A stretch of 64,000 nucleotides of DNA from Escherichia coli. Its GTDB lineage: Bacteria > Pseudomonadota > Gammaproteobacteria > Enterobacterales > Enterobacteriaceae. Every line of letters starts with the position of its first letter. The first letter of the stretch is position 1. Under the pieces are notes generated by a model. It was given only the letters and a program-made list of their open reading frames with translations, was not told where the DNA came from and did no database searches. The position numbers and the translations under genes are program-made. Positions 9,870 to 56,688 of this stretch are shown here, piece after piece. The stretch is taken from assembly GCF_044647545.1 (NCBI RefSeq), contig NZ_CP172818.1. One strand, given 5' to 3'.

Positions 9870-9880
9870 CGTTCAATCTC

Positions 9881-10001
<121 letters not shown>

Positions 10002-10062
10002 CGGATAGTTTTTACGATAAAGTACCTGGTTTGCTTCACAACTACCGGCGCGAACAAAAAAA

Positions 10063-11406: not shown

Positions 11407-11934
11407 TTATTTGCCTTTTTTAATAACCTCAATGGTGCTTGCCACAACACCTTCCAGCGGTTGATCGATATCCACCACCAGTACATCGGTTTCGTCCGCA
11501 CCCGGCTCCTGCAGCGTTTCAAACTGCGTCACCAACATTTGGGTTTTAAAGAAATGGCCTTTGCGCGCTTTCAGGCGGCTTTCAATCACATCAAAATCGC
11601 CTTTCAGGTAGATGAAAGAGAGATTCGGATTACCCGCGCGTAGCAAGTCGCGATAGTGTTTTTTCAGTGCAGAACAGACGATCAGCGACACTTTATTGGT
11701 GCGCTGCATAGCAAACGCGGCGTCGTTCAGCGCCTGCAACCACGGTTTGCGATCGTCGTCATTCAGCGGTTCACCAGACGCCATTTTTTCGATATTGCGC
11801 CGTGGATGGAGGAAATCGCCATCAAGAAACGCGGCATGAAGTTGATGCGCCACTTCACTGGCGACCGCAGATTTGCCGCTGCCCGATACGCCCATCAAGA
11901 CGTAAATGTGGTGATCATGGTTAGTCGTGCTCAA
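11407..11934 (-). CDS. gntK: Gluconokinase GntK (thermoresistant), likely TTG start
   Basis: ORF track 11407..11955; canonical 175-aa protein begins at (L/M)STTNHDHHIYVLMGVSGSGKSAV; Walker A GVSGSGKS. Confidence 0.88.
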   Translation of the reverse strand: MSTTNHDHHIYVLMGVSGSGKSAVASEVAHQLHAAFLDGDFLHPRRNIEKMASGEPLNDDDRKPWLQALNDAAFAMQRTNKVSLIVCSALKKHYRDLLRAGNPNLSFIYLKGDFDVIESRLKARKGHFFKTQMLVTQFETLQEPGADETDVLVVDIDQPLEGVVASTIEVIKKGK

Positions 11935-11964
11935 AGTGGTGCCCCCACAATACAAGAATTAAAA

Positions 11965-11993
11965 ATGTTACGGGTAACTGTTATCGGTAACAT
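11965..11993 (-). promoter_or_regulatory. Tandem GntR operator half-sites in gntKU promoter
   Basis: Plus strand atgttacgggtaactgttatcggtaacat, reverse complement atgttaccgataacagttacccgtaacat, matching the GntR operator consensus ATGTTACC-N-GTAACAT; about 30-60 bp upstream of gntK start. Confidence 0.65.
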
Positions 11994-12072
11994 TGTCCGG
12001 CCGGACAATATCAGAAGCAATATCCATCCGTGCCTTAAGTGTATAAGTGTGAGCTACTTCAAATTTGTGGGC

Positions 12073-13068
12073 TTAAATAGATCCGCCCGGTGACAAGGTG
12101 AAACCTAAATCTAACATTTTCGGTGTCACAGATTCGCCACGAATACGCGCCAGCAGGCGTTCAGCGCCAATACTGCCCATCCGCTCACGCGGCGTCAGTA
12201 CGCTCGCCAACCGTGGTTCCATCACCTGACCAATGTCATGACCATGGAAACCGGCAATCGCCATATCGTCAGGAACTTTTAACCCCAGACGCTGACATTC
12301 AAACGCCGCGCCGACCGCCAGATCATCATTAGTACAGAACACGCCATCCAGCTGCGGATATTCCCGCCGTGCCTGGCGAATCAGTTCAATACCGGAAGAG
12401 TAAGAAGAAGATTGCTCAACCATCACGCTATACGGCACCAGGCCTGCATCCAGCATCGCCTGTTCGTATCCCTTCTGTTTGATGATAGTACGTTCGTCGA
12501 GACGTGCGCCGAGATAGGCAATGTGGCGATGCCCGCGAGCAATAATGGCAGTGGTCATCTGGCGTGCCGCTTCAAAGTTATCAAAACCGACGGCAATATC
12601 GAGGCACGGCGACTTGCTGTCCATCAACTCCACCACCGGAATCCCCGCCACTTCAATCATCTTTAAGGTGCGTGGCGTGTGAGTACGTTCGGTGAGGATC
12701 AGGCCGTCGATATTCCATGAGAGCATGGATTCGAGGCGTTCTTGCTCCATTTCCGGTTTATAACCGTAGTGCGCCAGCATGGTTTGATAACCGTGCGCGT
12801 CGGTGACGCTTTCGATTCCGCGTAATACTTCCGCGAAAACCTGGTTGGTGAGAGAAGGTAACAGGACGCCAATCGCCCGGCTGGTGGCGTTAGAGAGGAT
12901 ATCGGGCGCGCGATTGGGAATATAACCCAGTTCATCAAGAGCGGCGGCAATCTTGCCGCGTAGAGCGACGGAAACCTGCTCCGGGTTGCGTAAAAAACGG
13001 CTGACCGTCATTTTGGTCACGCCTACACGGTCAGCCACATCCTGAAGTACGGGTCTTTTCTTTTTCAT
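12073..13068 (-). CDS. gntR: Gluconate repressor GntR (LacI family)
   Basis: ORF track 331 aa; N-terminal helix-turn-helix MKKKRPVLQDVADRVGVTKMTVSRFL. Confidence 0.93.
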   Translation of the reverse strand: MKKKRPVLQDVADRVGVTKMTVSRFLRNPEQVSVALRGKIAAALDELGYIPNRAPDILSNATSRAIGVLLPSLTNQVFAEVLRGIESVTDAHGYQTMLAHYGYKPEMEQERLESMLSWNIDGLILTERTHTPRTLKMIEVAGIPVVELMDSKSPCLDIAVGFDNFEAARQMTTAIIARGHRHIAYLGARLDERTIIKQKGYEQAMLDAGLVPYSVMVEQSSSYSSGIELIRQARREYPQLDGVFCTNDDLAVGAAFECQRLGLKVPDDMAIAGFHGHDIGQVMEPRLASVLTPRERMGSIGAERLLARIRGESVTPKMLDLGFTLSPGGSI

Positions 13069-13212
13069 CGTCCTGAAGGTACAAAAGAGATAGATTCTTT
13101 TAGTTTAACACGGACGCCTCAGAACCTTCCCGGGGAAAACAGTGCTTGTTTACAATTATTAGATATACACTAAATCAATTGCATCGCATTGTGCTAACGA
13201 CACGGCAAAACC

Positions 13213-13274
13213 CCGGTCGCGTACATCAGCACGCGACCGGAGCGAGCGAGGAAGCCTGCAAAAAGGCAGGCTTC
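13213..13274 (-). terminator. Two tandem hairpins downstream of yhhW; the distal one is followed by GGUUUUGCC on the minus strand
   Basis: Inverted repeats ccggtcgcgt/acgcgaccgg (13213-13240) and gaagcctgc/gcaggcttc (13251-13274). Confidence 0.45.
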
Positions 13275-13291
13275 AAAGATGCCGTTGAGTT

Positions 13292-13987
13292 TTAAACCGG
13301 CGGCAGATCGAACAGTAACACTTCGCTGTCGCTATCCGCATGAATGGAGATTGCCTGCTCATCCCAGATTGCCAGACCATCGCTGGTCGAGGCTTTCACG
13401 CCGTTAATGGTGACATTGCCTTTCACCACCTGGATCCAGACGCGGCGTTCAGCGGCAATCTGATGCACCGACTGCTCATCTTTCAGCAATGCCCAACGAT
13501 ACAGTTCCATATCCTGATGCACTTTCAGCGAACCATCTCGCGCATCCGGCGAGAGCACCAGCTGTTTGCCCTGTACGGCATCGAAGCGACGCTGTTCATA
13601 ACGCGGCGTAATGCCGTTTTCTTCAGGCATGATCCAGATCTGATACAGATGCAGACGCTCGGTGCTGCTTGGGTTGTACTCAGAGTGACGGATACCCGTA
13701 CCCGCACTCATAATCTGGAACTCACCCGCCGGAACCTGCTCTTTATTGCCCATGCTGTCCTGGTGCTCAACAGTACCTTCCAGCACGTAGGTCAAAATTT
13801 CCATATCTTTATGCGGGTGAGTACCGAAGCCCTGCCCTGCTTCAATCACGTCGTCGTTAATCACGCGCAGCGCGGAGAAACCCATAAAGTTCGGGTCGTA
13901 GTAGTTGGCAAAAGAGAAAGTATGCCAGGAGTCCAGCCAGCCATGATTTGCATGACCACGTTCATTTGCTTTGCGTAAGTAGATCAT
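13292..13987 (-). CDS. yhhW: Pirin-like quercetin 2,3-dioxygenase YhhW (cupin)
   Basis: ORF track 231 aa; MIYLRKANERGHANHGWLDSWHTFSF and HPHKDMEILTYVLEG cupin metal-site motif. Confidence 0.9.
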   Translation of the reverse strand: MIYLRKANERGHANHGWLDSWHTFSFANYYDPNFMGFSALRVINDDVIEAGQGFGTHPHKDMEILTYVLEGTVEHQDSMGNKEQVPAGEFQIMSAGTGIRHSEYNPSSTERLHLYQIWIMPEENGITPRYEQRRFDAVQGKQLVLSPDARDGSLKVHQDMELYRWALLKDEQSVHQIAAERRVWIQVVKGNVTINGVKASTSDGLAIWDEQAISIHADSDSEVLLFDLPPV

Positions 13988-14109
13988 TTGTATTCGCCCC
14001 CTGAATGTTTTCGATGGGCTTAGTGTGGACCCGATCTGCCTGGGATGATAGAGGGTGAAAATTGACCCCTATGTTCAAAAAAATTGAACTATTCGAGGGG
14101 CCATCAAAC

Positions 14110-15147
14110 TTACTTCGCGAGAGTCACTGTGGAGGGAGAGGCTTGCTCAAAACCGCGTTCAAGGATTTCCAAATTGGTAAGAACTTCAGATTCCTTGACG
14201 TAATTTGGCGCACCGTTGGTGATGGTTTGATACAACGCATCATAAACGCGCCCGTAATCGCCCATCTCCGGCTTCATCTCTTCTCTGACCGTCACCCCCT
14301 CGTCATTGACATACTCCAGCACACCGACCGAATCATCCGCTGCGAATCCCGGTTCGCCCGGCATAATATTAGCCTTGAGGCTGGTTTCCTGCTGGTCGAT
14401 ACCGTATTTAATAAACGAACCTTTCTTACCGTGAACGATAAATTTCGGATAATCGATTTTCACCAGATGGCTGGTTTTGACGATGGCTTTCAGGTCGCCA
14501 TAAAACAGCTGCGCTTCAAAGGTGTCGTCAGGATTGGCTTTATTACGCAGGCTGCGGATGTCATAAGCGACGTGATCCGGGCGACCGAACAGAGAAATAA
14601 TCTGGTCCATCGTATGCACACCAAGGCCATAGAACGCGCCATCCTGCGGCAGCCCAGGTTTGGTTTCTGCCACCGGGCGGTAATAGTCAAAATGGCTTTC
14701 CACTTCAACAATCTCTCCCAGCTTGCCGCTTTCAATCGCTTTTTTCGCCGTCAGAAAACAGGAATCAAAGCGACGATTCTGATACGGCGTGACGGTCAGC
14801 CCTTTACTTTTCGCCAGCGCAAAAAGTTCTTTCGCTTGCGCAAGCGTCGGAGTGAATGGTTTTTCGACCAGCACATTTTTCCCGGCTTCCAGCGCGCGCT
14901 TCGCGTACTCGAAGTGGCTGTCCGCATGGGTGCAGACAACAACCAGCTTAACATCGGGATCGTTTAGCACTTCGTCGAGATCGCTGGTGAAATGGATATG
15001 AGAGTAAATGGGAGCCTGTTCTTCCGGCTTCGCATGGCGACGAAAAATATGCGCGACATGCCAGCTATCCTTGCGGTTAAGTACATACGGCAGATGGTAA
15101 CGGGTGGTGCTTTTGCCGAAGCCAATAAAGGCGCAGTTGATGACCAT
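14110..15147 (-). CDS. yhhX: Gfo/Idh/MocA-family NAD(P)-dependent oxidoreductase YhhX
   Basis: ORF track 345 aa; N-terminal Rossmann segment MVINCAFIGFGKSTTRYHLPYV. Confidence 0.88.
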   Translation of the reverse strand: MVINCAFIGFGKSTTRYHLPYVLNRKDSWHVAHIFRRHAKPEEQAPIYSHIHFTSDLDEVLNDPDVKLVVVCTHADSHFEYAKRALEAGKNVLVEKPFTPTLAQAKELFALAKSKGLTVTPYQNRRFDSCFLTAKKAIESGKLGEIVEVESHFDYYRPVAETKPGLPQDGAFYGLGVHTMDQIISLFGRPDHVAYDIRSLRNKANPDDTFEAQLFYGDLKAIVKTSHLVKIDYPKFIVHGKKGSFIKYGIDQQETSLKANIMPGEPGFAADDSVGVLEYVNDEGVTVREEMKPEMGDYGRVYDALYQTITNGAPNYVKESEVLTNLEILERGFEQASPSTVTLAK

Positions 15148-15269
15148 GATTTCGTCCTTTTTAAGGGGGTTATTTACACCTTAGCGCAAAGCGGACGTGG
15201 TTCCTACTGGAGTGCGCATAACGAACACAAGCACTTCCCGTGGATAATTTGAAAACGAAAGATCAAAAA

Positions 15270-15359
15270 AAAAGCCAGCACCCGGCTGGCTAAGTAATAC
15301 TGGAAGCAATGTGAGCAATGTCGTGCTTTCAGGTTCTCCGCGAGGGTCTTCCTGATCGC
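15270..15359 (-). ncRNA. ryhB: Small regulatory RNA RyhB (iron-sparing sRNA) with intrinsic terminator
   Basis: Minus strand reads GCGATCAGGAAGACCCTCGCGGAGAACCTGAAAGCACGACATTGCTCACATTGCTTCCAGTATTACTTAGCCAGCCGGGTGCTGGC followed by T9; matches RyhB as I recall it; located between yhhX and yhhY as in K-12. Confidence 0.9.
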
Positions 15360-15362
15360 AAG

Positions 15363-15384
15363 ACAATAATAATCATTCTCATTC
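15363..15384 (-). promoter_or_regulatory. Fur box overlapping the ryhB promoter
   Basis: aataataatcattctcatt immediately upstream of the RyhB 5-prime end resembles the Fur consensus GATAATGATAATCATTATC. Confidence 0.6.
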
Positions 15385-15480
15385 GCACTTGTCCAACACT
15401 TTTTGCAAAAAAATGCATTTGACTCGCATTTGAAAGTCAATGATGTTGAAAGGGACATTTACCCCAAAGAGGACAAAGGA

Positions 15481-16305
15481 ATGAGTGAGATAGTAATACG
15501 CCACGCAGAAACACGCGATTACGAGGCCATCAGGCAGATTCACGCCCAGCCGGAGGTGTATTACAACACGCTACAGGTGCCTCATCCTTCAGAACAAATG
15601 TGGCTGGAACGACTCACCGCTCGCCCTGGCATCAAGCAGTTAGTCGCCTGTATTGATGGAATCGTCGTAGGCCATCTCACCATTGACGTGCAACAACGCC
15701 CACGCCGCAGTCATGTTGCCGACTTTGGTATCTGTGTCGACTCCCGTTGGAAGAACCGCGGCGTCGCCAGCGCCCTGATGCGAGAGATGATTGAAATGTG
15801 CGACAACTGGTTGCGGGTAGATCGTATTGAGCTAACGGTGTTCGTCGATAACGCGCCAGCAATTAAGGTCTATAAAAAATTTGGCTTTGAGATTGAAGGG
15901 ACTGGCAAGAAGTACGCGCTGCGTAAGGTGAATCGGGAGATCATGGGGTGCGCAACTTACGATGTGTGGGTAGGTGCTGCGGCTCCTCCGGCCCCGCCCG
16001 CTACGGCGGGCTACGGCGCGCGGCCGCCGCCGCAAACGGCGCCGCACGAATCGGGCCGCGGGGCCGCCTGCCCGCTCCGCGCCCCGGCGGTCCCGCGCAC
16101 GGGCAGGGCACCGCGCGGGGCCAGCGCGGGCGCGCAGCGGTTACGCGACCCCGGGGGGTGCGCGTTCGGTGACGCACGGGCGACGCGGGGGCAGGCCGCG
16201 CACCCGACGGGGGGGACGGGGCGGCCGCGGCCCGCCGGGGCCCAGCGCGACGGGGGGCCCGACGGGCCGGCGGGGCGAGCCCTCACCTACCGGGAGAGGG
16301 CTTAA
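15481..16305 (+). CDS. yhhY: GNAT N-acetyltransferase YhhY, reading frame extended into a GC-rich block because no stop occurs at the expected 162-aa position
   Basis: ORF track 15403..16305; MSEIVIRHAETRDYEAIRQIHAQPEV start at 15481; after about 162 residues the frame continues as low-complexity Ala/Pro/Gly/Arg-rich sequence to 16305. Confidence 0.7.
   Translation: MSEIVIRHAETRDYEAIRQIHAQPEVYYNTLQVPHPSEQMWLERLTARPGIKQLVACIDGIVVGHLTIDVQQRPRRSHVADFGICVDSRWKNRGVASALMREMIEMCDNWLRVDRIELTVFVDNAPAIKVYKKFGFEIEGTGKKYALRKVNREIMGCATYDVWVGAAAPPAPPATAGYGARPPPQTAPHESGRGAACPLRAPAVPRTGRAPRGASAGAQRLRDPGGCAFGDARATRGQAAHPTGGTGRPRPAGAQRDGGPDGPAGRALTYRERA
15967..16276. other. About 310 bp block of extreme GC content (by eye well above 80 percent) between yhhY and ggt; open in several frames, no recognisable gene
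   Basis: Seen directly: runs such as ggccccgcccgctacggcgggctacggcgcgcggccgccgccg; contrasts sharply with the roughly 50 percent GC flanks; right edge abuts a hairpin gccctc-N11-gagggc and the ggt stop. Confidence 0.85.
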
Positions 16306-16309
16306 GATA

Positions 16310-18055
16310 TTAATACCCCGCCGTTAAATCATCCACCGAGCGCGAGTCGGATGCACCGTACAACTCACCATCCGACCCAACCATAATGCTTTGCGTACTG
16401 CCCATCGCCTCTTTCAGCGCCACTTTCTGACCTTTTGCTTCCAGCAGCTTGAGCGTATCCGGGCTAAACCCTTTTTCGACACGCAGCTCGTCCGGCAACC
16501 ACTGATGGTGGAAACGTGGCGCATTGGTCGCTTCGGCGACATTCATACCACAATCGATGCTATTCACCACCATTTGCAGCACGGTAGTGATGATCCAGCT
16601 CCCGCCAGGGCTACCGGTAACCAGCCAGGTTTTACCGTCTTTCACCACAATGGTGGGTGACATCGACGACAGCGGGCGTTTATTCGGCCCGACCGCGTTG
16701 GCGTCACCACCCACCAGCCCGTAAACGTTCGGTACGCCCGGTTTGGCGGAGAAATCATCCATCTGGTTATTGAGCAAAATACCGCTCTCGCCCGCGACAA
16801 TGCCCGTCCCGAAGGTGGTGTTCAGCGTATAGGTCACCGCCACCGCGTTACCGTCTTTATCCACCACTGAGTAATGGGTAGTTTGATTACTCTCATAAGG
16901 CGCAAGCTTGCCGGGGCGAATTTCGCTGGATGGCTTCGCTTTATTGATATCGATTTGATCGGCAATAGATTTGGCATAGGCTTTATTGGTCAGCGCCTGC
17001 CACGGTACTTTGACAAAATCCGGATCGCCAAGATATTCCGAGCGGTCGGCGTAGGCGTATTTCTCAGCTTCTGCCATGATTTGCATCGCGTCGGCACTGC
17101 CAAAGCCGTACTTCTTCATATCGAAGTTTTCCAGGATATTGAGGATCTGCACGATATGAATCCCACCGGAAGATGGCGGTGGCATCGAGTAAACCTGATA
17201 CCCGCGATATTCGCCGCTAATCGGTGTACGTTCGACCGCTTTATACGCCGCTAAATCTTCTTTAGTGATCAAGCCACCGTTTTTCTGCATCTCCTGGGCA
17301 ATCTGTTCCGCTATCGTGCCTTTGTAGAATTCGTCCGGGCCGTTTTCGGCAATCATCTCCAGGCTCTTTGCCAGGTTCGCCTGCACCAGCTTGTCACCCT
17401 TTTTCAGCGGCGCGCCCTCTTTCCAGAAGATAGCCTTGCTGTTTTCGTGATTCGGCAATACTTCGCTACCGTAGGTTTTGAGATCGTCAGCCAACGCGTC
17501 GTTAACGATAAAACCATCGCGTGCCAGTTTAAACGCCGGTTGCACCACTTTGTTCAACGGCATGGTGCCGTACTTCTCCAACGCCAGCGAGAAACCTGCT
17601 ACCGTACCGGGCGTACCAGAAGCCAGATGCGAAGTGAGTGATTTTTTGCTGTCCGGGTTACCCTGATCATCAAGGAACATATCGCGGGTCGCTTTGGCGG
17701 GTGCCATTTCGCGGAAATCGATAGCCGTGGTATTGCCATTTTTCGAGCGGATTAACATAAAACCACCGCCGCCCAGATTCCCCGCCTGCGGATGCGTTAC
17801 CGCCAGCGCGTAGCCCACTGCCACGGCAGCATCAACGGCATTCCCGCCCTCCTTGAGGATATCCACCCCCACCTGAGTGGCAGTAGCATCTACAGACGCC
17901 ACCATCCCCTGTTTCGCGCGTACCGGATGAAAGACATCTTCCTCCACGCCGTAAGAAACAGGAGACGGCGCAGGTGGCGCGGCTACCGTACTAAAACAAC
18001 TTCCTGTGAACAGAGCAGCAATGGCCACCCGGCGTAAAAACGTCGGTTTTATCAT
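16310..18055 (-). CDS. ggt: Gamma-glutamyltranspeptidase Ggt
   Basis: ORF track 16310..18082; start placed at MIKPTFLRRVAIAAL signal peptide (580 aa); Thr nucleophile region TTHYSVVD; C-terminus DDLTAGY. Confidence 0.93.
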   Translation of the reverse strand: MIKPTFLRRVAIAALFTGSCFSTVAAPPAPSPVSYGVEEDVFHPVRAKQGMVASVDATATQVGVDILKEGGNAVDAAVAVGYALAVTHPQAGNLGGGGFMLIRSKNGNTTAIDFREMAPAKATRDMFLDDQGNPDSKKSLTSHLASGTPGTVAGFSLALEKYGTMPLNKVVQPAFKLARDGFIVNDALADDLKTYGSEVLPNHENSKAIFWKEGAPLKKGDKLVQANLAKSLEMIAENGPDEFYKGTIAEQIAQEMQKNGGLITKEDLAAYKAVERTPISGEYRGYQVYSMPPPSSGGIHIVQILNILENFDMKKYGFGSADAMQIMAEAEKYAYADRSEYLGDPDFVKVPWQALTNKAYAKSIADQIDINKAKPSSEIRPGKLAPYESNQTTHYSVVDKDGNAVAVTYTLNTTFGTGIVAGESGILLNNQMDDFSAKPGVPNVYGLVGGDANAVGPNKRPLSSMSPTIVVKDGKTWLVTGSPGGSWIITTVLQMVVNSIDCGMNVAEATNAPRFHHQWLPDELRVEKGFSPDTLKLLEAKGQKVALKEAMGSTQSIMVGSDGELYGASDSRSVDDLTAGY

Positions 18056-47411: not shown

Positions 47412-50235
<2,824 letters not shown>

Positions 50236-50278
50236 CTATTAAAATTAAGTTCGTACGTCTGTAAAAAAGGATTTTACG

Positions 50279-53200
50279 ATGAGCGGAAAACCGGCGGCGC
50301 GTCAGGGCGACATGACGCAGTATGGCGGTAGCATTGTTCAGGGTTCTGCCGGGGTGCGTATTGGTGCCCCCACCGGCGTGGCCTGTTCAGTGTGCCCCGG
50401 CGGGGTGACGTCCGGTCATCCGGTCAATCCGCTGCTGGGTGCAAAGGTCCTTCCCGGCGAAACCGACCTTGCCCTGCCCGCCCCGCTGCCGTTCATCCTC
50501 TCCCGCACCTACAGCAGTTACCGGACAAAAACGTCCGCGCCGGTGGGGAGCCTCGGCCCCGGCTGGAAAATGCCTGCGGATATCCGCTTACAGCTGCGCG
50601 ATAACACACTGATACTCAGTGATAACGGCGGCAGAAGCCTGTATTTTGAGCACCTGTTTCCCGGTGAGGACGGTTACAGCCGCAGCGAGTCACTCTGGCT
50701 GGTGCGCGGCGGCGTGGCGAAACTGGATGAAGGTCACCGGCTGGCCGCACTCTGGCAGGCGCTGCCGGAAGAGCTTCGCCTGAGTCCGCATCGTTATCTG
50801 GCGACGAACAGTCCACAGGGGCCGTGGTGGGTACTCGGCTGGTGTGAGCGGGTGCCGGAGGCGGATGAGGTGCTGCCTGCGCCGCTGCCGCCGTACCGGG
50901 TACTGACCGGGCTGGTGGACCGCTTCGGGCGCACACAGACGCTCCACCGCGAAGCCGCCGGTGAATTCAGCGGCGAAATCACCGGCGTGACGGATGGTGC
51001 CGGGCGTCACTTCCGGCTGGTACTGACCACGCAGGCGCTGCGGGCAGAAGAGGCCCGGCAGCAGGCCATTTCCGGCGGGACGGAACCGTCCGCTTTTCCT
51101 GATACCCTGCCGGGTTACACCGAATATGGCCGGGACAACGGTATCCGCCTGTCCGCCGTGTGGCTGACGCACGACCCGGAATATCCGGAGAATTTACCTG
51201 CCGCGCCGCTGGTGCGCTATGGCTGGACGCCACGCGGCGAACTGGCGGTGGTGTATGACCGCAGCAATACACAGGTGCGCAGCTTTACTTACGATGATAA
51301 ATACCGGGGCCGGATGGTGGCGCACCGTCACACGGGCCGGCCGGAAATCCGTTACCGTTACGACAGTGACGGGCGGGTGACAGAACAGCTAAACCCGGCA
51401 GGCTTAAGCTACACCTATCTGTTATGAGCAAAACCGCATCACCATCACCGACAGCCTGAACCGCCGTGAAGTCCTGCATACGCAGGCGAAGGCGGCCTGA
51501 AGCGGGTGGTGAAAAAGGAACACGCGGACGGCAGCGTCACGCAGAGTCAGTTTGACGCGGTGGGCAGGCTTAAGACACAGACGGATGCCGCAGGCCGGAC
51601 AACAGAATACAGCCCGGATGTGGTGACGGGCCTCATCACGCGCATCACCACGCCGGATGGCAGGGCATCGGCGTTTTACTATAACCACCACAGCCAGTTA
51701 ACGTCAGCCACCGGGCCTGACGGGCTGGAAATACGCCGGGAATATGATGAATCCGGCCGTCTGATTCAGGAAACCGCCCCTGACGGCGATATCACCCGCT
51801 ACCGTTATGATAATCCACACAGTGACTTCCCCTGCGCAACGGAAGATGCCACCGGCAGCCGGAAAACCATGACGTGGAGCCGTTACGGTCAGTTGCTGAG
51901 CTTCACCGACTGTTCCGGCTACCAGACCCGTTATGACCATGACCGCTTCGGGCAGATGACGGCGGTGCACCGCGAGGAAGGCCTGAGCCAGTGCCGCGCA
52001 TACGACAGCCGTGGACAGTTAATTGCCGTGAAAGACACGCAGGGCCATGAAACGCGGTATGAATACAACATCGCCGGTGACCTGACCGCCGTCATTGCCC
52101 CGGACGGCAGCAGAAACGGGACACAGTACGATGCGTGGGGAAAGGCCATCCGTACCACGCAGGGCGGGCTGACCCGCAGTATGGAATACGATGCTGCAGG
52201 ACGGGTCATCCGCCTGACAAACGAAAACGGCAGCCACACCACCTTCCGTTACGATGTACTCGACCGGCTGATACAGGAAACCGGCTTTGACGGCCGCACA
52301 CAGCGTTACCACCACGACCTGACCGGCAAACTTATCCGCAGCGAGGATGAGGGGCTGGTCACCCACTGGCACTATGACGAAGCAGACCGCATCACGCAGC
52401 GAACGGTGAATGGTGAAACCGCAGAACAGTGGCGGTACGACGAACGCGGCTGGCTGACACAAATCAGCCATCTCAGCGAAGGGCACCGGGTGACGGTGCA
52501 TTACGGGTATGATGAGAAAGGCCGCCTGACCGGTGAGCGCCAGACGGTGCATCATCCGCAGACGGAAGCACTGCTCTGGCAGCATGAGACCAGACATGCG
52601 TACAACGCGCAGGGGCTGGCGAACCGCTGTATACCGGACAACCTGCCCGCCGTGGAATGGCTGACTTATGGCAGTGGTTACCTGGCAGGGATGAAACTCG
52701 GCGACACACCGCTGGTGGAGTACACCCGCGACCGCCTGCACCGGGAAACGCTGCGCAGCTTCGGCCGTTATGAACTCACCACCGCTTATACCCCTGCCGG
52801 GCAGTTACAGAGCCAGCACCTGAACAGCCTGCAGTATGACCGCGATTACACCTGGAACGACAACGGCGAACTCATTCGCATCAGCAGCCCGCGCCAGACC
52901 CGGAGTTACAGCTACAGCGACTCCGGCAGGCTGACCGGCGTTCACACCACCGCAGCGAACCTGGATATCCGCATCCCGTATGCCACGGACCCGGCAGGTA
53001 ACCGCCTGCCCGACCCGGAGCTGCACCCGGACAGCACCCTCAGCATGTGGCCGGATAACCGTATCGCCCGTGACGCGCACTATCTTTACCGGTATGACCG
53101 TCACGGCAGGCTGACGGAGAAAACCGACCTCATCCCGGAAGGGGTTATCCGCACGGATGATGAGCGGACTCACCGGTACCATTACGACAGCCGGCACCGG

Positions 53201-54514
53201 CTGGTGCACTACACGCGGACACAATATGCAGAGCCGCTGGTCGAAAGTCGCTATCTTTACGACCCGCTGGGCCGCAGGGTGGCAAAACGGGTGTGGCGGC
53301 GTGAACGGGACCTGACGGGCTGGATGTCGCTGTCACGGAAACCGGAAGTGACCTGGTACGGCTGGGACGGCGACCGCCTGACCACGATACAGAACGACAG
53401 AACCCGCATCCAGACGGTTTATCAGCCGGGGAGCTTCACACCACTCATCAGGGTCGAAACCGCCACCGGTGAGCAGGCGAAAACGCAGCGCCGCAGCCTG
53501 GCGGATGCGCTTCAGCAGTCCGGCGGCGAAGACGGTGGCAGTGTGGTGTTCCCGCCGGTGCTGGTGCAGATGCTCGACCGGCTGGAAAGTGAAATCCTTA
53601 CTGACCGGGTGAGTGAGGAAAGCCGCCGCTGGCTGGCATCGTGCGGCCTGACGGTGGCGCAGATGCAAAACCAGATGGACCCGGTGTACACGCCGGCGAG
53701 AAAAATCCACCTGTACCACTGCGACCATCGCGGCCTGCCGCTGGCGCTTGTCAGCACGGAAGGGGCAACAGAATGGTGCGCAGAATACGATGAGTGGGGC
53801 AACCTGCTGAATGAAGAGAACCCGCACCAGCTGCAACAGCTTATCCGCCTGCCGGGTCAGCAGTATGATGAGGAGTCAGGCCTGTATTACAACCGCCACC
53901 GCTATTATGACCCGCTGCAGGGGCGGTATATCACTCAGGATCCGATTGGGCTGAAGGGGGGATGGAACCTGTATGGATATCAATTGAATCCGATATCAGA
54001 CATCGACCCCCTGGGTTTATCTATGTGGGAGGATGCAAAATCGGGGGCATGTACTAATGGTCTTTGCGGCACACTATCCGCTATGATAGGTCCAGATAAG
54101 TTTGATTCTATAGATAGCACCGCATATGACGCCTTAAATAAAATAAATAGCCAATCTATTTGCGAAGATAAAGAGTTCGCTGGTTTAATATGTAAGGATA
54201 ATAGTGGCAGATATTTCTCAACAGCACCTAACCGAGGGGAAAGAAAAGGATCATATCCATTCAATAGCCCTTGCCCTAATGGTACTGAGAAAGTATCAGC
54301 TTATCATACTCATGGTGCAGATAGTCATGGAGAATATTGGGACGAAATATTTTCAGGCAAAGATGAGAAAATAGTTAAAAGTAAAGATAACAATATCAAG
54401 TCATTTTATTTGGGCACGCCCAGTGGTAATTTTAAAGCAATAGATAACCACGGGAAGGAAATAACAAACGGAAAAGGATTACCTAATGTCTGCAGAGTTC
54501 ATGGTAATATGTAA
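50279..54514 (+). pseudogene. rhsB: Rhs core protein RhsB with C-terminal toxin tip; interrupted by an in-frame TGA at 51425-51427, frame resumes downstream (ORF track segments 50279..51427 and 51506..54514)
   Basis: N-terminus MSGKPAARQGDMTQYGGSIVQGSAGVRIGAPTGVACSVCPGG; YD-repeat core; core-tip boundary motif DPIGLKGGW near 53940; both segments in the same frame, total 1412 codons as for intact RhsB. The break could be a real disruption or sequence error. Confidence 0.8.
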
Positions 54515-54869
54515 AAAAATATTTTTTAGGAACTGTGTCATTGTATCTTTGTTTGTTTTTACATACAACACATGGGCGCAGTGTAATAATAATATTAAAA
54601 TAATGCGCAAGTATGAAAGTGAGGGTAAATATACCGTTAGAAATTTGGTTAAAAATAAAGCTATAGCATTGGAATTAGCTGAGATATATGTTAAGAATCG
54701 TTATGGGCAGGATGCCGCAGAAGAAGAAAAACCATATAAAATCACTGAGTTAACAACAAGTTGGGTTGTTGAAGGCACCATTCACTCAGACCAAATTGCT
54801 GGTGGGGTTTTTATTATAGAAATAGGCAAAAATGATGGGGTAATTCTGAATTTTGGCCACGGAAAATAA
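54486..54869 (+). CDS. yhhH: Probable Rhs immunity protein YhhH, overlapping the 3-prime end of rhsB
   Basis: ORF track 127 aa; start lies 29 nt inside the rhsB tip, the usual toxin-immunity arrangement; AT-rich like the tip. Confidence 0.75.
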
Positions 54870-54958
54870 GTATGTAAGGATAATCAAACATCGTGTGCGC
54901 TGATGGCAGAGTAGGTGGAGGACTCCAGACAGTCAAACGATAAAAAAAGATAGCCTTT

Positions 54959-55357
54959 ATGGAGGCTCCTGCAATGTCAAATACATACCAGAAAAGAAAG
55001 GCAAGTAAAGAGTATGGTTTATATAATCAATGTAAGAAACTAAATGATGATGAATTATTTCGCTTACTTGATGATCACAATTCCTTGAAAAGGATTTCAT
55101 CTGCCAGAGTATTACAGTTAAGAGGTGGGCAAGACGCTGTTAGATTGGTAATTGAGTTCTGCTCTGATAAAAATTATATCCGTAGAGATATCGGAGCATT
55201 TATACTCGGGCAAATAAAAATTTGCAAAAAATGCGAAGATAATGTGTTTAATATTTTGAACAATATGGCATTGAATGATAAGAGCGCTTGCGTTCGAGCT
55301 ACGGCAATCGAGTCAACGGCCAGGGAAAGATCATCAAAAGTACACTTTTTGTACTAA
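54959..55357 (+). CDS. Short HEAT-repeat-like protein, possibly a truncated YibA-like orphan remnant of an Rhs element
   Basis: ORF track 132 aa; AT-rich; real start may be the internal Met at 54974 (MSNTYQKRK). Resemblance to YibA is from memory, not a search. Confidence 0.45.
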   Translation: MEAPAMSNTYQKRKASKEYGLYNQCKKLNDDELFRLLDDHNSLKRISSARVLQLRGGQDAVRLVIEFCSDKNYIRRDIGAFILGQIKICKKCEDNVFNILNNMALNDKSACVRATAIESTARERSSKVHFLY

Positions 55358-56601: not shown

Positions 56602-56688
56602 TCTTTCCCTGATACAAAAAAAAAACAAGTTCAAAACTTTATCCGGCAATCAATATATACACACAATATGAAGTCAAGTTTCCCTTCC

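Follow-up and report, generated by a model that had tools for sequence, protein, structure and literature searches.

At the 3′ end of yhhY, in a 64,000-nt stretch of Escherichia coli DNA (hereafter, the window), 344 non-native nucleotides stand in place of 63 native bases, and this block, with about 87% G+C, is most probably no biological feature. We consider it likely, with a probability of about 0.7, that the block is non-biological filler introduced by assembly, polishing or in-silico infilling. It was absent from the relatives and the public data searched, its composition was degenerate and without functional anatomy, and similar anomalies were found at other breakpoints in the window. The features concerned are listed in Table 1.

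Table 1. Coordinates of the block, its seams and the companion anomalies in the window.
Feature	Position	Strand	Evidence
Left seam; 1-nt deletion, native CGTAATGGTGAAT to CGTAAGGTGAAT	15925..15933	+	Alignment to FDAARGOS_497
Non-native block; extreme-GC core at ~15976-16277	15934..16277		Alignment to FDAARGOS_497, GC profile, no collection match
yhhY ORF fused through the block, 274 aa	15481..16305	+	ORF list, translations
Native yhhY/ggt hairpin AGCCCTCACC...GGAGAGGGCT, intact; right seam	16278..16302		Inverted repeat; identical to reference
ggt; 12 substitutions in the last 96 codons (16322-16597)	16310..18055	-	Comparison with reference
A-rich degenerate run, then noisy spacer copy (10004-10060)	9877..10003		Composition, reference comparison
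nikR-rhsB seam; nikR stop lost by 1-nt deletion	50213..50261		Reference comparison
Seam 3′ of the ISAs1 transposase gene, before yhhJ	56602..56661		Comparison with reference, K-12 and O26

Extent and composition of the block

Alignment of the window to FDAARGOS_497 (NZ_CP033850.1) revealed identity through position 15925, after which one T was missing at 15926 within the native CGTAATGGTGAAT, a deletion that put yhhY out of frame at codon 149. The next seven bases were still native, after which similarity to the reference ended. The native bases lost to the block comprise the final 14 codons of yhhY, its stop codon and 28 nt of spacer. On the other side, identity to the reference was regained precisely at the hairpin located 3′ of ggt. 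The fused reading frame joins native YhhY residues 1-148 to 126 novel residues rich in Ala, Pro, Gly and Arg, and stops at a TAA (16303-16305) in the terminator hairpin. The initial annotation had placed an extreme-GC block between yhhY and ggt, with limits of 15967-16276. The block exists, but the true non-native start lies at 15934, about 33 nt earlier, where GC content is 53-62%, and the block starts inside yhhY rather than between the two genes. In K-12, the sRNA gene ryhB is located between yhhX and yhhY; positions ~15200-15400 of the window matched the reference and were untouched by the block.

Sliding-window analysis confirmed that the claimed composition is real. The most GC-rich 300 nt reached 86.7%, against a mean of 53.0% (sd 6.5%, maximum 69.7%) in the remainder of the window, which corresponds to z = 5.2, and the maximum in 161 kb of further fetched loci, mostly from E. 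coli, was 68.7%. Measured per 100 nt, GC content was 76-88% across 15950-16299 and about 45-58% in the flanks. Along the block it climbed from 53-62% in the initial 40-50 non-native bases to 80-93% thereafter, and the core contained 139 G, 123 C, 25 A and 15 T.

Searches for relatives and functional anatomy

The yhhY-ggt junction is a natural variable hot spot. The initial annotation described the yhhY-ggt gap as short in K-12, and this was wrong: MG1655 carries a 3.4-kb island there, consisting of yhhZ, yrhA::IS1E, yrhD and yrhB. Other strains have yrhB alone, and in the FDAARGOS_497-type strains, the closest relatives of the window, the gap is 60 nt. The block showed no similarity to the island genes of the yhhZ/yrhA/yrhB type, even after the alphabet was collapsed to purines and pyrimidines.

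The possibility that close reference genomes carry the block natively, which would have overturned the initial view of it as an anomaly, was checked against 5,426 complete E. coli genomes. The results showed that none of them covered the block, whereas its flanks were matched in 5,425. Sensitive blastn of 15930-16310 against the complete E. coli genomes aligned only 16278-16310. In the plasmid collection there was one chance-level match (49 nt, E = 0.3), and in the phage collection there was no match to the block. Exact words of 31-37 nt, which sampled both the GC core and the left part of ordinary composition, were absent from the GTDB species genomes, IMG/VR and the JGI metagenomes; such scans detect identical words only and are weak evidence against diverged relatives. 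Protein-level searches covered the two most plausible of the six frames. A search of 5.8 billion protein clusters gave no homologue for the plus-strand tail in the yhhY frame, and the best minus-strand ORF had one match among 1.84 billion representatives. This match (P0001) was judged spurious, being a 2,657-aa tandem-repeat protein whose score summed weak matches with no individually significant stretch. Donor homologues of the kind expected for horizontally acquired coding DNA were thus found neither in the two protein frames nor by the exact-word scans.

A local source was sought as well. Comparison of the block with the rest of the window and the fetched loci yielded only chance 12-17-mers, which ruled out a copy of sequence present there. 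A local copy hypermutated by transitions was likewise rejected, as purine/pyrimidine-collapsed scores against the K-12 island, the yrhB region, the native junction and the dprA/RecQ island were at the level of shuffles.

Analysis of the block itself gave a consistent picture. As initially described, several frames are open and encode Ala/Pro/Gly/Arg strings, which is evident from the ORF list and the translations. The base counts predict about 0.4 stops per 100 codons, so open frames are expected at this composition. GC content by codon phase in the core was 86.1, 84.2 and 90.0%, without a second-position dip and without the pattern of high-GC coding DNA, in which the third position stands well above the second. 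The period-3 Fourier power of G and of C was modest, and that of A and of T lay close to the mean or below it; the k-mer content of the core was near-random, with an entropy close to that of shuffles. The missing codon periodicity and the lack of homologues for the two most plausible frames ruled out a gene fragment, in agreement with the earlier statement that no recognisable gene is present. As for RNA, no Rfam family was matched (best E-values 1.2-7.3), and the folding energy of the block (-222 kcal/mol) gave z = +0.18 and -1.37 against dinucleotide shuffles; the test for a structured ncRNA therefore returned neither a known family nor folding beyond the shuffled controls, and both a known RNA family and a special structure were rejected.

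Repeats were limited to two near-duplications of 10 nt and to GC-rich inverted matches as short as 11-13 nt, which likely follow from composition, and a tandem or dispersed repeat was rejected. The test for a mobile element (IS, MITE, REP/BIME or ERIC) found no terminal repeats and reported no target duplication, and the block is single-copy. Neither promoter-like sites on the yhhY strand nor terminator-like sites were found in the block region. Two NotI sites (GCGGCCGC) were seen by eye in the block, and we attach no meaning to them, about 0.4 being expected from base composition by our own estimate. Taken together, the block is no gene, RNA, repeat or mobile element, and it is without relatives in the collections searched.

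Companion seams and the 3′ end of ggt

Outside three places, the window was 100% identical to FDAARGOS_497 over about 57 kb, without a single mismatch or indel. All three places are sites of gene-content difference between K-12-type and FDAARGOS_497-type genomes, and the seams at each of them are unnatural. Between yhgN and gntU, the window lacks the 3.4-kb dprA/RecQ island carried by the reference and the other closest relatives. It carries instead a run that lacks G for about 125 nt, contains stretches of poly-A and reaches 97% A per 30 nt, followed by the yhgN-gntU spacer of island-less strains with many substitutions and small indels. This arrangement was found in no complete E. coli genome. 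The reference island, at 11915-15213 of the FDAARGOS_497 locus and outside the window, holds a DprA-like protein gene paired with that of a RecQ-family helicase between yhgN and gntU; the pair could represent a small accessory or defence island.

Between nikR and yhhJ, an rhsB-yhhH-ISAs1 segment takes the place of the hicAB of the reference. Loss of the stop lengthens the nikR ORF by 7 codons, and the nikR-rhsB spacer, which is 200 nt long and identical in K-12 and O26, is represented here by a partial imitation of about 50-65 nt. Behind the transposase gene, K-12 and O26 have a spacer of about 160 nt; in the window it is reduced to about 60 nt with an A10 run, and it rejoins the reference through three 1-nt deletions. 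In addition, rhsB is split into ORFs of 382 and 1002 aa by a +1 insertion at 51423 and a -1 deletion at 51484, 61 nt apart, with stops between them.

The rhs region was not dismissed as junk as a whole. Its interior (52486-55323), which holds the Rhs C-terminal tip, a yhhH-like immunity gene and a HEAT-repeat gene fragment, was 99.97% identical to another rhs locus and is thus natural, and two of its proteins were natural as well. These two were present in an index of 153 billion genes, whereas the fused YhhY (274 aa), the altered Ggt (581 aa), the extended NikR and the 382-aa N-terminal fragment of RhsB were all absent from it. In natural E. coli genomes the matching rhs locus occupies another position, such as one about 190 kb away from ggt in CP063476.1, and over the whole segment the best matches at rhsB loci reached only 96-97%. 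The sequence of the region suggests that it has been rearranged or mixed among paralogues.

The 12 substitutions in ggt span 276 nt, and the next 8.4 kb showed zero differences from FDAARGOS_497. They were compared with 11 diverse E. coli alleles. At six of the sites the window has the base found in most of the sampled alleles, and each of these changes is synonymous. The other six (16345, 16370, 16375, 16394, 16551 and 16597) are private and are all transitions. Of these, four are nonsynonymous (P>S, P>S, Y>C and R>W), three of them at residues that are identical in H. pylori GGT, namely R in GGSRII, Y in IDY and P in DPR. Moreover, majority-type states alternate with a reference-specific one at a distance of just 3 nt (16517 T, 16520 C), which fits a simple recombination tract poorly. 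A natural divergent ggt allele was rejected on the grounds that no E. coli genome exceeded 96.7% identity over 16278-16640, that a 37-mer across five of the variants was absent from metagenomes, and that half of the variants are private. The ggt changes look unselected.

Origin of the block and comparison with known systems

The findings are best explained if the block was written by the process that produced this sequence, such as assembly, gap closing, polishing, consensus building or in-silico infilling, and was not evolved or acquired in a cell. The template is lost 8 bases past the single-nucleotide slip at codon 149 of yhhY. The GC content then drifts upward across 344 nt, starting near 55% and ending near 90%, and the native sequence is rejoined exactly at the terminator hairpin. 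The following 320 nt are a rewritten 3′ end of ggt, with six sites moved to the majority base of the sampled alleles and six new transitions. The three other seams in the window show similar signs, namely a small slip and a noisy or shortened imitation of a spacer, with a compositional collapse at two of them. Under this explanation, the template would have been lost and then regained at structural breakpoints. We infer that the cause was algorithmic, that is, model- or consensus-based rewriting at structural breakpoints and not raw read error, because the other 57 kb is free of indels and mismatches and the changes next to the block are substitutions only. For the same reasons, raw long-read error was considered unlikely. 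Among the three origins offered by the initial annotation, an artefact fits best; the searches found no donor for foreign high-GC DNA, and nothing points to an engineered insert.

Some observations speak against a production artefact. The yhhY-ggt junction is a genuine recombination hot spot, and six of the 12 ggt changes are common, synonymous E. coli polymorphisms, as expected of a natural recombination tract beside a real insertion. The natural rhs interior, with its 99.97% identity, indicates that not all oddities of the window are junk. Furthermore, a non-repetitive stretch of 344 nt at 87% GC is not a typical output of any standard assembler or sequencing chemistry known to us. The main rival is a real strain-specific insertion, in which GC-rich foreign or untemplated DNA would have been captured at yhhY-ggt during break repair, and gene conversion together with error-prone synthesis during that repair would have altered the neighbouring 320 nt of ggt. 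The variability of the site, occupied by the island in K-12 and by yrhB alone or nothing elsewhere, is in keeping with such an event, as are the common natural alleles among the flanking changes, their clustering within 320 nt of the block and abrupt end, and the clean junctions with the native hairpin retained. Nevertheless, we consider the insertion unlikely. No donor or relative appeared in any collection searched, 87% GC at all three codon phases is unlike typical coding DNA, and several independent odd events would be needed in one 64-kb stretch that is otherwise identical to a relative. The majority-type and reference-specific states 3 nt apart and the private changes at conserved Ggt residues also count against it. 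That the block is physically present in living E. coli, as orphan DNA of 87% GC and of unknown or untemplated origin captured at this junction, is in our judgement improbable.

The idea of an engineered tag, barcode or spacer downstream of yhhY draws only on the uniqueness of the block and its sharp right boundary, and we regard it as very improbable: yhhY is truncated by a frameshift, the region offers neither promoter-like sites on the yhhY strand nor terminator-like ones, the absence of repeats and of protein homologues leaves no visible selectable gene, no real match came from the plasmid collection, and the mutated ggt end and the other seams would be left unexplained. Least credible of all is a functional element, either a structured ncRNA or a newborn coding extension of YhhY. 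The 126 open codons in the yhhY frame and the strong folding energy could be read in its favour, but such a frame is expected at the composition of the block, the folding is at the level of shuffled sequences, and Rfam returned no match.

The main value of the result lies in quality control. Taken literally, the sequence replaces the last 14 residues of YhhY with a disordered tail of 126 aa and damages Ggt, and a reading at face value would lead to a spurious YhhY fusion of 274 aa, an impaired Ggt and an erroneous call of foreign DNA. We do not think that the YhhY tail and the damaged Ggt reflect a living genome. Since at least three further similar seams are present in the window, caution is called for with the source sequence in its entirety. 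If the block were real, it would represent an unusual capture of orphan DNA at a known hot spot, with an instant 126-codon extension of YhhY and with traces of gene conversion and mutation left nearby in ggt. Non-homologous capture and the birth of coding sequence de novo would then have been caught in the act, in a bacterium without classical end joining.

Among known systems, the yhhZ-yrhA-yrhD-yrhB island of K-12 is found at the same place in the chromosome, next to a 3′ end of ggt that is naturally polymorphic. Unlike the block, with its 344 nt, no gene and no similarity to the island, it consists of 3.4 kb of genes of ordinary composition. REP units are about 35 nt long and roughly 60-65% GC. 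The REP/BIME family and other GC-rich intergenic repeats resemble the block in being GC-rich, short and located at the ends of convergent genes, but REP/BIME elements are palindromic and multi-copy by definition, whereas the block is single-copy, has no significant palindromic unit and overlaps a coding region. Collapse into homopolymers and low-complexity sequence has been reported for the generative genome model Evo 2 (bioRxiv 10.64898/2026.01.17.700093). Those collapses produce multi-kilobase homopolymers after hundreds of kilobases, in contrast to a non-repetitive GC-rich block of 344 nt; 57 kb of the window copies a real genome perfectly, and no provenance links it to such a tool. The likeness to machine-written sequence is drawn as an analogy and is no evidence of origin. 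It lies in the drift to compositional extremes, from 53 to 93% GC in the block and up to 97% A in the A-rich run, in the rough imitation of spacers, and in the apparent rewriting of the neighbouring ggt toward common alleles.
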